Shown: positions 57,001 through 64,000 of the stretch, one piece after another
How the letters are laid out: every line of letters starts with the position of its first letter
How positions within the stretch are numbered: position 1 is the stretch's first letter
Assembly (NCBI RefSeq): GCF_030384885.1
Contig: NZ_CP128614.1
Direction: 5' to 3' (one strand)
Origin: Escherichia coli
GTDB taxonomy: Bacteria; Pseudomonadota; Gammaproteobacteria; Enterobacterales; Enterobacteriaceae
Length of the DNA stretch: 64,000 nt
Program-made: the position numbers

Positions 57001-60000
57001 GCTCGGCGATATCAGGGTGGACGTCAATATGCATTGATCCATTTTTGTAAACCCTGAAACGAATACTGTTGCCATCGATGCAGATCCATTTTCTGAACCC
57101 CTCATGTTCGACCAACGCCTCAACCAATGATTTGGTGTTATGGATCGCCTTCACCTGTTCGCCACGGAAGAATGCGCATATAACGCGGAGCTCGCTCAGC
57201 GGTGAAATGCCAGACTCTTTAAAATCCACCCTTAATTTCTGCCAGGGGTATTTAGACGGCTCGCAAACTCCGGTAGTGATCATGCGGGTGGAGAACCCAA
57301 AAGCTTTGTTTGTCTTGTGACTGCGGCTCAGAGACTGGAAGACGTCGTAAACCCTTTCTTTAATAAATTGATTGCGGTCATTAAGCAAAGCAACGACTGT
57401 GCCCACTACAGCGTCAGCTGTGAAATCAGGGATCACCTGAGGCGGCATAATATAACGGTCGGCCGTAAACTGCTTATCCCATTCGTTACGTTTGGCATCC
57501 GACATGATAGGCAAAACATCAGTGAGTGCCATAACGCATTTCCAGTATTCTGATCTCAGAGCGTTTTCTGCGAACAAAGCATCCGCTTCTGAGATGCTGT
57601 GGTTGTAGCCTGAGAGATAAGAATAAAGTTTCTGGTGATTGTGGGTTTTGAACTGGACAGCCATGAGTTTCAACAAGCAGAGTTCATCATTATAGGACTC
57701 AACAAGATCCGCGATAATGCCGAGCTCTTTGCGCATATCTGGAAGAAATGTTTCAGGAGAGCTAACCACCAGGCTATGAGAGGTTGTTAAAGCCAGTACG
57801 CTGTGACCTGCATTATCGGGTTTAGCTTCAGAATCAAGAGATGACATTTTACCGGTCCTTTAGAAAAAACTTTTACCAGGATAGCAACGTCGCTCAGTAA
57901 CCTAATAGGTTCAGTGACACGAAAAAGTTTTTTATGTCTCTGAATAAAACTTAAAGATGTCAACTCATAGAAAGAAGCAAAAAAAAAGCCCCGCATAAAC
58001 GGGGCAAGAACGATACATGGAGGTTTAAAAAAGGCGGGCAAAAAGCCTGAATCCTTAATGACTCTGACAAAACCAGCACTTTGCCAAAAGTAAATTATTC
58101 TGCGTCCGGCTGTGGGTCAGTATCCTGATCGGTCTCTTCCCCTGCCTTCTTAGCATTTTTTTTACGTGGGTATTTTGGCTTCTCACCATTAAGTTTTGCC
58201 TGACGATTCTCCGCACGGCGAAGCTGCTTGTTCTCTGATTCTGTGATCTCTTTTGAAAGATTTCTCAACATCTCCAGAGTACTGCGGTTCAACGTAATGT
58301 TGATTTCTTCGTCAGCACTTGAATCTGTCAGCTCCGGCAATTCAATATCCCCCAGTTTCTGTAATAAGCTGGTGGTGATGAGTTTGACGCCTTCTACGGC
58401 TTTTGTGGCAATAACCGGCGGAATCCGTGCTGGCTTGAAGTCTGAAGGTCTGACTCGTACCTGACCATGTTGGGTTTTTTTCACCGTGATGCCATTCGCA
58501 TCGGCCTGCTCAAGTTCTGCGATCATCTTCTTGATACGTGAAATTGCTTCTGTTTCGCCGAGCTCATCGATCAGTGAAAGCACGTTAACATACGAAATAG
58601 CGTCAGCATGAATCCATTTCTTGATAACAACAGAACAGGTTGTCAGGCGGATAAGAGAACTGATGGTCGTCGGGCTTTTATTTTCACGTTGAGCAATTCG
58701 TTCGAGTGACCAGCCAGCAAGAGAATGTAGGCGACGATAGGACTCGCCAAGCGCAACAGGAGAAAGCGCAAGACCACGGTTACCATCAATGGTCGCGAGC
58801 TCACAGCCAATTTCATCTTCTTTAATCTCAACGCAAAGGATTGTGATGTCATGATCTTCATCACATGCCATCATTGCGGCTTTTAAACGGCAGTGCCCCT
58901 GGCGAACAAAAGGTACCCCATCAATGACACGTACTCGGATAGGGTCTACATAGTCACCTCGAATGTAGGCATTCTTGATGTTGTAGATGTGTTCTTCAAC
59001 CTCAGGGAGCTTATAGTAATCGTCACCCATTCCCATTTCGCGGGAGTTGAAGCCTGGCGTGACCTGAATTACTGAAGGGTGGATAGCCCATGCTTTCTGG
59101 TCACTTACTTCAGTACAAAGTTCAGGGTTTGCATCACGGAACTGTTTAAGCCCAGTGACGTAACGGCCTGTGCCAGTAACTACTGAAAAGGCAACATGGG
59201 CCGTTTTAAAGACCTTGTCATTAGCTTGCTGTGTAGGTTCTGTCAGTAAAACACTCATAGGGGCTCCGTTACATTTTTCTGCTTACTTTCTGCGTAGCGG
59301 GGATACTACCGAAAAAAAAATTCATAATTTTTCGCAAAAAAGGTACTTTTTGAGCCTATTCTGATTTTTTACAAAAAAAGGTGGCTCCCCATTACTTGTG
59401 ATGGCATAAAAATCGCTTCATAAACAAATACATAAATCCAAAACATAAAGTTCAGGTATAAGTGAGGAAAAATCTTATAAATCCGAAATGCTGAAAGTCA
59501 AAACTGTGCGTCTTAAACAACTTTTTTTTGCTCCCTAAGTTATTAGTTAAAGCCCGTGGTTAGGTACGATACCAGCACCTAAATTTCTCTCTCAGGTATA
59601 GACACTTTGACTCGACATCTCAGACACATGCCGATAATCAAATGGGCTGGTGGAAAAACGAAACTGATGCCTTTCATCAGCCATCACTACCCACACGATC
59701 ATAGTTGCCGGTGGGTAGAACCCTTTATAGGCGGTGGTGCCGTTTTTCTGAACATGTTTGCACAAAATGCATTGCTTGCAGATAGCAATCCAGACTTGAT
59801 CAACCTATACAGGACTATTCAAAGACAGAAAACTAACTTTATAAATCAGGTCCAAAACTTGGCGGATAAAACCTTTGTCGAAAAGGACTACTATGAGATG
59901 AGGGACCGTTTCAACAAAACCTGTATTTCTGGTCAATCGCTTCAAAGAGCGGCTTTGTTTTACTCCCTGAATCGCCTGGGCTATAACGGTATGTGCCGCT

Positions 60001-63000: not shown

Positions 63001-64000
63001 TTGATTAGATTTAGGCTAATCAAACGTTGAAGCTCTAATGGCATATCAAGGATTTTTAGCATATTACGAATTGCGGTAGTTGATCGTTGATATCGCATTG
63101 CTAGTTCTTCAACCGAATACCCGAGACTAACAGCATGAGCTAATGCATGAGCTTGCCCAACCGGATTTAGCCCATTGCTTCTGTTACCATCGAGGTTCTC
63201 AAGGTATTCTTCAATTTCGTTTTTATAATCGATTAGGATAACAGATAATTTTGGAATATTAGCACCTTCAGAAATTGCTAATTTTAAGCCATGAAAACGA
63301 GTATGACCTTGACGAACTAAATATTTACCTTTTCTTTTTACGACCTTGATCATATCAACCTGCCTTCCTTCCTTAAAGGCTTGTTTGATTGACACAATCA
63401 TCGACTTGACAGGTTCTTGTTCGTAACACAAATCTCCGATTACCGCCTCTCGGGGATTAAATCCCTTTTCAATTTCAACTAGATTAGTATCCACTTCAAT
63501 GACTGTATGTTTGCTGTTGTTCATATCTTCCTCCTGTTTACTACATGATACATGAACCTCAAATTTGCCAAATAGGGCTGATACATCTAAAAGGTAAACT
63601 CAAAAAATTTGCTTAATAAAATTAAAATAAAAACTGTCTTGAATAAAACAATGATAGTAGACCCTCGTTCATTTCCGTTTGCGATCTGTAGATATTGTTA
63701 AAGGAGCGCTATTCCTTGTTTTATATGGACTTATCATTGTTTTCAACAGGATAGATCAATTCTTTAGATCACTAAAGATCAATAGAGTTCAAGTAAAGAT
63801 CACGGCATCTTTAACTCATTGATTATAGTGACTTTATGAAAGGATCCGGCATTCGGATGCATGCGAAAAGCATTTGAATGAATAAGGAAGGCATTTACTG
63901 GAATGCTTATGGCATTTAGGTTAATGCGTAAAAAGCATTTGCAAGAATATGTTATAAACAGTTTGCCAAATGAAAATCTTATCACCGACGAGTTAAGTTA

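Follow-up and report, generated by a model that had tools for sequence, protein, structure and literature searches.

What do two ParB-like proteins do on a conjugative plasmid when no ParA gene lies beside either of them? This question is raised by a 64,000-nucleotide stretch of Escherichia coli DNA (NCBI RefSeq assembly GCF_030384885.1, contig NZ_CP128614.1), which is referred to below, at its full length, as the window. A first-pass annotation had noticed two ParB-like open reading frames (ORFs) without an adjacent ParA, and both are indeed present, on the minus strand: one at 58095..59258 (387 amino acids; WP_000114859.1), which contains VRQGHCRLKAA, and the other at 62469..63524 (351 amino acids; WP_001065779.1), which contains VRQGHTRFHG. 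We call them PblA and PblB, respectively; these are working labels, not published names. Their full-length orthologues in the IncHI1 plasmid R27 are R0042 (74% identity) and R0037 (58%), the flanking intergenic DNA being barely alignable. IncHI2 and IncHI1 plasmids are major carriers of mcr-1, extended-spectrum beta-lactamases and typhoid multidrug resistance, and much of the conserved IncHI backbone has no assigned function. In public databases the two sequences are named "hypothetical", "DNA-binding" or "ParB/Spo0J HTH domain-containing"; some copies are named "ParB/RepB/Spo0J family partition protein", and R0042 "partition protein". In the literature, we found no functional study of these proteins or of DUF4942, a domain encoded next to pblA, and no IncHI transposon sequencing that covers these genes. 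The reading that we favour, with moderate confidence, is that PblA and PblB are ParA-independent, nucleotide-gated DNA-binding regulators or clamps of the KorB/VirB/Noc/HerB type, active together with transfer functions.

The window is IncHI2 (R478-type) backbone. The 8-kb region around pblA and pblB is 100% identical to hundreds of conjugative plasmids of 190-370 kb from Escherichia, Salmonella, Enterobacter and Klebsiella; 1,117 plasmid records match it, 659 of them at an identity of at least 99%, and identical PblA and PblB proteins occur on more than 1,000 plasmids. In the complete example plasmid pD90-1, typed as IncHI2A and MPF_F, the region has repHI2 on one side and, on the other, a second rep gene, of the RepB family, which begins just outside the window on the right; after this come the Tra2 transfer genes and, further on, a ParA/ParB pair.

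A ParB fold with variant motifs

PblA and PblB are true ParB-fold proteins, each combining the ParB N-terminal nucleotide-binding fold with a ParB helix-turn-helix (HTH). The AlphaFold2 models have a mean predicted local distance difference test score of 80 for PblA and 84 for PblB, with values above 90 over the N-terminal domain and the HTH. In Foldseek comparison with the PDB, both models match, with probability 1.0, ParB bound to cytidine triphosphate (CTP) or diphosphate (7bnk, 6sdk, 7bm8), Noc (7ng0, 7ol9) and RK2 KorB (8qa8, 8qa9); the top match of PblB is KorB in the KorA complex (8qa9; template modelling score 0.62, E 9e-9). Classification by hidden Markov models (HMMs), which the first-pass annotation had suggested, points the same way: Pfam HTH_ParB scores 22.7 (PblA) and 26.9 (PblB) bits, at or just above its gathering score of 22.6, and phrog_1033, "ParB-like partition protein", matches PblA at E 3.3e-28 (profile positions 28-312 of 334) and PblB at E 1.9e-25 (positions 30-206 of 334), but the ParB N-terminal model PF02195 matches neither protein, and TIGR00180, at 32-34 bits, stays below its curated cut-off of 58.45. 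A profile of 65 diverse family members finds Spo0J/ParB in the PDB at E 2e-18 to 1e-16, Noc at ~1e-14 and KorB at 6e-9; P1 ParB is reached at E 3e-4 only, over ~38 HTH residues. Both proteins thus have the N-terminal CTPase fold followed by the HTH that mark a ParB (models, HTH_ParB and the profile at E 2e-18), both belong to the phrog_1033 family, and the HTH_ParB and phrog_1033 matches together with the confident models show pblA and pblB to be real genes, not chance ORFs.

The two proteins are diverged paralogues (30% identity over 174 residues, E 4e-22). PblA consists of: (i) a structured N-terminal extension (~residues 15-50), conserved among PblA-type proteins; (ii) a ParB-type N-terminal domain with the motifs GFNSR (69-73), GHCR (121-124) and DGN (158-160); (iii) a ParB HTH (~165-230); and (iv) a C-terminal region of long helices with a basic tail. 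PblB has no N-terminal extension, its folded domain beginning a few residues after the protein start; it carries GFNPR (21-25), GHTR (73-76) and DGN (112-114), a ParB HTH (~119-182) and ends in a distinct alpha/beta domain (~240-351). Both paralogue groups and the phage members share, without exception, G69, N71, R73, G121, R124 and N160 (PblA numbering), i.e., GFNxR (box I-like), GxxR (box II) and the Asn of xDGN (box III region), along with two HTH positions. In the profile alignment, GHCR falls on GERR; the Gly and the Arg equivalent to Bacillus subtilis R80 are retained, whereas the Glu is replaced with His and the first Arg with Cys in PblA (Thr in IncHI2 PblB), so that GERRxR becomes GHCRLK or GHTRFH. 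Box III ENLQR is not conserved, and xDGN stands in its place. In canonical ParB, the box II Glu catalyses CTP hydrolysis.

Such a departure from GERR could be taken to indicate an enzyme of the ParB/sulfiredoxin fold, either a nuclease, as in "ParB-like nucleases" and Osa, or a sulfiredoxin- or kinase-like protein using the His-Cys of G-H-C-R. The His-Cys pair does occur in most of the family (GHCR in ~85 of 149 members), and sulfiredoxin and serine-kinase ParB-fold enzymes are among the structural matches of the N-terminal domain. These matches, however, are weaker, covering ~100 residues at much weaker E-values, whereas the matches over the full length, HTH included, are ParB, Noc and KorB. 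Moreover, the Cys is frequent, not invariant, being Thr in IncHI2 PblB, with GEHR or GHHR in phage members; it appears to align with B. subtilis ParB R79, not with the catalytic Cys of sulfiredoxin, and no PADLOC or nuclease family match was obtained. We therefore regard an enzymatic role as extremely unlikely. The first-pass annotation had offered KorB-like regulators or nucleases as alternatives; the KorB comparison is reasonable, KorB being the best structural match of PblB, but the nuclease option finds no evidence; both proteins have a ParB HTH and lie nearest to DNA clamps that bind CTP.

Neither PblA nor PblB contains a methyltransferase domain (Pfam). No third ParB-fold gene was detected in the window, either by the family HMM on all ORFs or by Pfam beside the other methyltransferase genes. 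The PADLOC models match neither PblA and PblB nor the 285-amino-acid, zinc-finger-like and 66-amino-acid proteins encoded between or near them. Membership in a defence system was rejected on this basis, two neighbouring methyltransferases reaching generic type II or orphan methyltransferase models only.

Evidence against a partition function

PblA and PblB do not partition the plasmid; IncHI partition is the task of separate modules, type Ia ParA/ParB and ParM/ParR. In support of this, there is no adjacent ParA, there is no ParA-binding motif, and the proteins are unrelated to the plasmid's own ParB at the profile level. The ParA motif KGGxGK[ST] is absent from all ORFs of at least 100 amino acids in the window, the single P-loop-like match being a chance match in an Ig-like protein. 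A parA elsewhere on the replicon, which the first-pass annotation had proposed to look for, does exist: ParA (KGGTGKS) is encoded to the right of the window, ~16.8 kb from its end, but the next gene is that of its cognate type Ia ParB (EGSRRR), which the family HMM does not detect even at E<10. The presence of this parA outside the window, which the annotation had named as part of a possible refutation, thus counts against its reading in a trivial sense only and does not turn PblA and PblB into partition proteins. The ParA-interaction motif [LFI]G[KR]G[LFI], taken from a 2025 survey of the ParB-CTPase fold (PMC12704722), occurs in none of 149 family representatives, PblA and PblB included. Across 15 distinct family contexts, which were inspected by hand and do not amount to statistics, none has an adjacent ParA. 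The view that these are not partition proteins is thus upheld, with the family orphan in 15 of 15 contexts. ParA adjacency, the ParA-binding motif, the GERRxR patch and ENLQR, all typical of type I ParABS systems, are missing from PblA and PblB. The layout is the same in R27, with parA/parB at 23-25 kb and parM nearby, and R27 stability has been ascribed to a type I (major) and a type II (minor) par locus (Lawley and Taylor 2003, summarised in PMC4489591); on IncC plasmids, the family member is likewise separate from the ParA/KorB-type pair.

A weaker form of the partition idea is that PblA and PblB are accessory centromere-binding proteins, which would occupy extra centromere-like sites, use the distant ParA or ParM and so add to the partition or incompatibility determinants of the plasmid. 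Both do have a ParB fold with an HTH, on a replicon that encodes a ParA, and some database names, that of R0042 among them, say "partition". However, that ParA already has an adjacent ParB, the ParA-binding motif is missing, PblB has no N-terminal peptide, neither a palindrome census of the window nor a repeat search found parS-like palindromes, and Par1 and Par2 account for R27 stability. The family is also orphan in lytic phages, which need no partition, and the expression of the R27 orthologues tracks conjugation rather than being constitutive like that of parAB. An accessory partition role is therefore highly improbable.

Expression in R27

The expression pattern comes from the literature on R27, where a microarray gene list running from R0036 (rep) to R0043 ("DNA restriction methylase") agrees in order with the R27 record (PMC7366339). 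The PblA orthologue R0042 gave 6132 units at 25 C and 2278 at 37 C, a 2.7-fold difference; the 25 C value exceeds those of parB (2418) and parA (2527) and is near the top of the listed genes (PMC7366339). In a derepressed htdA mutant at 25 C, the induction was 4.2x for R0037 (the PblB orthologue), 7.0x for R0038, 5.0x for R0039, 18.6x for R0040, the strongest in the block, 7.8x for R0041, 3.4x for R0042 (to 20561 units) and 1.5x for R0043 (PMC7366339). R0042 was induced under every conjugation-promoting condition, whereas parA and parB were HtdA-independent (PMC7366339). Because the htdA induction is unlike that of parAB, the block belongs, in R27, to a conjugation-linked programme and not to housekeeping partition. 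R0043 mRNA, at 217 units, was ~28-fold below that of R0042 (PMC7366339).

A conserved block with orphan methyltransferases

The genes R0037 to R0043 correspond to a block that has one shared order in IncHI2, IncHI1 (R27, pEQ2) and IncHI-like plasmids of less than 50% identity: a rep gene or a gene for a ~520-amino-acid protein, the PblB type, an ORF of 65-66 amino acids, a zinc-finger-like or ~232-266-amino-acid protein, a ~260-285-amino-acid protein, Dam on the opposite strand, the PblA type and, usually, a DUF4942 N6-adenine methyltransferase. The whole block lies between the two replicons of the plasmid. Only the PblA type is retained in pNDM-MAR and a Photorhabdus plasmid.

In the window, the 66-amino-acid ORF (62251..62451, minus strand; R0038), retained in IncHI1 and at loci L011, L012 and L013, lies between pblB and the zinc-finger-like gene, overlapping the latter by 4 nt. 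The zinc-finger-like protein (61538..62254, minus strand; 238 amino acids; R0039) is encoded downstream of pblB in the same orientation. The gene for the 285-amino-acid protein (60449..61306, minus strand), the R0040 orthologue by position, is tail-to-tail with the gene for a Dam-family (D12 class) orphan adenine methyltransferase (59607..60440, plus strand, with the RefSeq start at 59628; R0041), which in turn is divergent from pblA. Downstream of pblA lies the gene for a 563-amino-acid protein (56156..57847, minus strand; R0043) with a DUF4942 and an N6-adenine methyltransferase domain (phrog_6263, E 1e-111); its position after the PblA type is kept in IncHI1, L005 and L013. The 285-amino-acid protein has no family, structure (PDB) or nuclease match, and the idea that this neighbour of Dam is a GATC restriction enzyme was not supported. 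Its orthologues give sub-threshold hints of a C-terminal winged helix.

The main rival to our favoured reading starts from this neighbourhood: PblA, and perhaps PblB, would act with the adjacent orphan methyltransferases. It comes in two versions: (i) the ParB-fold protein controls methyltransferase expression, as DndB does on the dnd operon or C-proteins do on restriction-modification systems; (ii) it loads on the plasmid and recruits or activates Dam and the DUF4942 enzyme, so that the plasmid is methylated around transfer and escapes restriction, which would amount to a split-gene form of the fusions between ParB and a methyltransferase that phages and plasmid leading regions encode. The divergent Dam-PblA type-DUF4942 arrangement is conserved in IncHI2, IncHI1 and the representatives of less than 50% identity; R0041 is co-induced with the block in the htdA mutant; the IncC family member is in an operon with a site-specific methyltransferase, and in phage Sasha a methyltransferase gene lies three genes upstream. 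Phages often encode a ParB fold fused to a methyltransferase, and DndB, which regulates a modification operon, also has a ParB fold (PMC12704722). In 8 of the 15 contexts, a methyltransferase gene is no more than about four genes away, but this count stands without a background rate, and mobile elements are generally rich in methyltransferases. Moreover, there is no nearby methyltransferase in pNDM-MAR, Photorhabdus, L007, L026, L028-L030 or phage VLCpiS10a, PblB has none adjacent, and SSU5-type phage-plasmids encode DUF4942 methyltransferases without a ParB-like neighbour. Between pblA and the methyltransferase gene of the window lies a terminator-like hairpin, and the R27 orthologues of these two genes differ in mRNA level and, with R0043 hardly induced, in HtdA response. 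On balance, we consider this rival unlikely.

A related proposal, which is more doubtful still and which we put forward as a speculation, is that PblA and PblB represent a distinct ParB-fold branch (GFNxR ... D/Q-G-H-C-R), a nucleotide-gated clamp coupled to DNA methylation during conjugation. Such a clamp might load on the plasmid in transfer-competent donors or new transconjugants and then guide Dam and the DUF4942 methyltransferase encoded nearby, or license their action, or else remodel plasmid or host transcription, so that the element could become established despite restriction and silencing; the three paralogues of each IncHI plasmid would then have DNA targets of their own.

The backbone as a whole appears to invest heavily in orphan methylation: four DNA methyltransferase genes lie within 28 kb, none with an obvious restriction partner. 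Apart from Dam and the DUF4942 protein, these encode an N6_N4 methyltransferase with an Mrr_N domain (32819-34069, minus strand) and a small N6-adenine methyltransferase (42806-43630, plus strand).

Candidate DNA sites

A GC-rich hairpin followed by a T-run (57988..58005, minus strand) is the terminator-like element between pblA and the DUF4942 methyltransferase gene; as a prediction, it suggests that pblA is a transcription unit of its own, in keeping with the 28-fold excess of R0042 over R0043 mRNA. Two copies of an AT-rich quasi-palindromic repeat precede pblA on the minus strand: ACCTTTTTTGCGAAAAA (59328..59344), 70-86 nt upstream of the pblA start, and ACCTTTTTTTGTAAAAA (59366..59382), 38 bp upstream of the first copy. 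The common pattern ACCTTTTTT-N3-AAAAA thus has two exact copies upstream of pblA, compared to 0.16 matches expected in the window at up to one mismatch, and IncHI1 retains one copy in the corresponding position. Judged from the sequence, these repeats are a candidate operator or loading site.

The first-pass annotation had also suggested that the two proteins bind "the palindromic sites", a suggestion that found no support. A palindrome census of the whole window revealed no operator-like family, the long palindromes being single-copy; the exception is one 15-bp palindrome that occurs twice, at 14727 and 61201, not beside pblA or pblB. A repeat search of 55.9-64 kb found no parS or operator palindromes beside either gene, although a cognate site need not have a recognisable form. 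The multiple copies of one palindromic operator at backbone promoters that characterize KorB-type regulators were not seen in the census.

Upstream of pblB, footprinting showed a conserved rep-proximal half, which is part of the neighbouring replicon origin, and a pblB-proximal half that is not conserved; accordingly, the conserved sequence was rejected as a PblB site. The origin itself, of the RepB-family replicon, extends from 63760 to 64000 and past the window end, with AAATGC-type iterons and four TGATCT (GATC) repeats within ~55 bp, all strongly conserved with R27. It is a matter of speculation that, with a Dam gene 3.5 kb away, the plasmid could secure the methylation of its own origin.

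This arrangement raises the possibility that PblB, bound close to the origin, influences how one of the two IncHI replicons initiates, its copy number or its incompatibility. In both IncHI2 and IncHI1, pblB and the RepB-family rep gene diverge from a common intergenic region, in which the conserved iterons and GATC repeats are found, and the block sits between two replicons. However, the conservation does not extend to the pblB side; in distant IncHI-like plasmids, a co-oriented gene for a 514-520-amino-acid protein lies upstream of the PblB type and there is no recognisable rep; phage and IncC members are not beside origins; and the induction of R0037 accompanies that of the tra genes, whereas R0036 (rep) responds to temperature in the opposite direction. 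We hold a role in origin control to be highly unlikely. It is, like the partition and enzymatic roles, less likely than the favoured reading.

The wider family

A profile search of 1.84 billion representatives yielded 509 clusters (50% identity) at E<=1e-30 and 5,001 at E<=1e-10, with a median length of ~317 amino acids. Among the best 149 members, box II is DGHCR in 55 and Q/E/S-GHCR in 30, followed by DGHHR, DGEHR and others. HTH_ParB matches 56 of 65 diverse members, the KorB domain PF08535 matches two, and PF02195 none. Because PF02195 detects none of the 65, surveys of the ParB-CTPase fold that were seeded with this model have likely missed ~500-5,000 clusters of the family.

In a plasmid collection, tblastn located homologues in 2,470 records, with identities of at least 99% in IncHI2, ~74% in IncHI1, 36% in pNDM-MAR-type IncHI1B/FIB Klebsiella plasmids and 30% in IncC; a profile scan of genome contigs with the PblA-type alignment gave five loci only. 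The phage members are from Sashavirus and Klebsiella siphophages, inside early or replication gene blocks, and the neighbours of distant members include RdgC, H-NS-like, primase, polyvalent ART/LPD, RecA-like and CsrA genes. The IncC member (pHD7427-NDM, L015, 6950-7888; 312 amino acids), the highest-scoring against the family profile (416 bits), is in a long operon that comprises hypothetical genes and the gene for the site-specific methyltransferase; the true ParA/KorB-type ParB is encoded downstream of it. In the literature this member carries the name "parB-like regulator", as a label only (PMC10954446).

Because IncHI2 records show three tblastn places, a third IncHI2 paralogue lies outside the window. 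R27 also has a third family member (NC_002305.1, 92336-93541; L033, 30337-31542, plus strand), a 401-amino-acid "hypothetical protein" found by the family HMM at E 4e-58, with Hok, DUF905, DUF957 and DUF3085 genes as neighbours. This gene set resembles the leading region of F, where HerB/YfjB sits between DUF905 and psiB. Elsewhere in R27 (140402-142567; L032), a thermonuclease-family gene adjoins the cytosine methyltransferase R0154. By position, this gene is probably the "R0153 partition protein", an RP4-ParB-nuclease-type annotation that does not refer to the ParB/Spo0J fold. R0153/R0154 was rejected as a further ParB-like/methylase pair: the locus has no family member, and the methylase neighbour is of the thermonuclease family.

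Comparison with known systems

Orphan ParB-fold proteins on mobile elements are a recognised kind, within which the PblA/PblB family is new and uncharacterised. Canonical ParB/Spo0J and Noc, which clamp chromosomal DNA in a CTP-dependent manner, share the N-terminal fold and the HTH and provide the best sequence-profile matches (E 2e-18 to 1e-14) as well as structural matches. PblA and PblB differ from them in the sub-threshold TIGR00180 score, the missing PF02195 match, the change of GERRxR to GHCRxK or GHTRxH, the loss of ENLQR, and the lack of a ParA-binding peptide and of a match to the ParB C-terminal dimerisation domain. Within phrog_1033, the alignable part of Sashavirus gp77 is its N-terminal domain and HTH, where it shares the motifs of PblA and PblB; phage members are shorter (~250 amino acids), often have GEHR, and carry the "partition" label as an annotation only.

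KorB of the IncP plasmids RK2/RP4 is similar in being plasmid-encoded, with a ParB N-terminal domain and HTH; a CTPase of the ParB family that represses transcription globally, it has a regulatory role and not one of segregation alone. However, KorB has the canonical GERR, a cognate ParA (IncC), the partner KorA, the PF08535 domain and 12 palindromic OB operators, whereas PblA and PblB have no ParA or KorA partner in the window, no PF08535 match, GHCR or GHTR in box II and other C-terminal regions.

VirB of the Shigella plasmid pINV, a CTP-dependent anti-H-NS switch, is also a plasmid orphan ParB-fold transcription regulator without ParA (PMC10770331, PMC10653881). IncHI conjugation, too, is controlled by H-NS and temperature, and the PblA orthologue is 2.7x more highly expressed at the permissive 25 C. 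VirB, however, belongs to the P1 ParB/type Ia clade, which the family profile meets only in the HTH of P1 ParB (E 3e-4), so that PblA and PblB fall outside that clade; no virS-like site and no H-NS link emerged for PblA or PblB.

HerB (YfjB), encoded in the leading region of F, is an orphan on a conjugative plasmid with a CTP-binding domain and an HTH, no ParA and no parS-like motif, and is tied to conjugation, reprogramming the host after transfer (PMC13370423). The third IncHI paralogue, among Hok and DUF905 genes, is placed as HerB is in F. HerB has 652 amino acids, box II GGRR and the extra domains D3 and D4 that define its family, membership of which requires that at least 80% of D1-D4 be covered and that the D4 dimerisation dome be part of this (PMC13370423). 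In contrast, PblA and PblB have 387 and 351 amino acids, no D3/D4 and a BLASTP E>3 to HerB, the family profile covers HerB residues 56-216 only (N-terminal domain and HTH; 23 bits), and their block is not demonstrably in a leading region. Membership in the HerB family was rejected because no similarity extends past the N-terminal domain and HTH. HerB is a close functional precedent from a different family.

DndB and the ParB-fold/methyltransferase fusions likewise place a ParB fold beside DNA-modification genes, with GxxR of the D-G-x-H/C-R type; PblA and PblB have no DndB family match, and their methyltransferases are separate genes, one behind the terminator-like hairpin.

A putative nucleotide-gated regulator

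Under the favoured reading, i.e., ParA-independent regulators or clamps, a PblA or PblB dimer would recognise specific DNA through the HTH, possibly the ACCTTTTTT-N3-AAAAA repeats in the case of PblA. Nucleotide binding by the N-terminal domain would gate a clamp-like or higher-order DNA-bound state, and, as long as transfer functions are active, this state might modulate transcription or other processes on plasmid DNA, perhaps also on the chromosome of the host. ParA-independent regulators with a ParB fold have precedents in VirB (PMC10770331), HerB (PMC13370423) and the orphan ParBs of mobile elements (PMC12704722).

Several points weigh against this interpretation. DNA binding, nucleotide binding and regulation are all inferred from sequence and models, for PblA and PblB as for their orthologues. 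With the catalytic Glu and the first Arg of GERR replaced and box III divergent, CTP binding or hydrolysis may be altered or lost, and the sequence of a ParB fold does not allow its nucleotide specificity to be predicted (PMC12704722). We could not define a conserved operator, as the dam-pblA intergenic region is too diverged across six plasmids; the ACCTTTTTT-N3-AAAAA repeat is confined to IncHI2/IncHI1-type sequences, and no PblB site was found. It should be noted that the microarray data are from IncHI1 R27 orthologues, not from this IncHI2 plasmid, and that the very high level of R0042 mRNA is unexpected for a tightly autorepressed regulator.

Together with the third paralogue, which is encoded outside the window, pblA and pblB belong to the strictly conserved part of the backbone, and they add a large family, spread over IncHI, IncC and pNDM-MAR-type plasmids and phages, to the ParA-independent ParB-fold switches KorB, VirB, Noc and HerB. 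The family stands out by its variant P motif, its invisibility to PF02195, the three paralogues per IncHI plasmid and the very high, conjugation-linked expression of the PblA orthologue. The P motif, with His and Cys in place of Glu and Arg, would be informative on how the ParB fold tunes its use of nucleotides. Should establishment, methylation or transfer prove to be under their control, these proteins would offer a conserved point of attack against the spread of resistance plasmids.

Other features of the window

The cargo part of the window contains an operon (12249-16846, minus strand) of the anti-phage type known as cyclic oligonucleotide-based anti-phage signalling system (CBASS). It encodes a patatin phospholipase (15776-16846), a DncV-like cyclic-nucleotide synthase (14475-15776), an E1/E2 protein with ThiF and Prok-E2_B domains (12706-14475) and a 156-amino-acid ORF to which no class was assigned (12249-12719), all on the minus strand. 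A second cargo segment (19870-27345), which may be an integrated element or a defence island, comprises a ResIII/DEAD-type helicase gene (19870-21264, plus strand), a tyrosine recombinase gene (25966-27345, minus strand) and two large ORFs without a family match (24225-26000 and 22096-24258, minus strand). Finally, repHI2 is flanked by the genes for three ~800-amino-acid Ig-like domain proteins (39073-41490, minus strand; 45084-47504, plus strand; 51698-54154, minus strand), a class reported to be needed for IncHI conjugation (RSP-type; PMC6764697).

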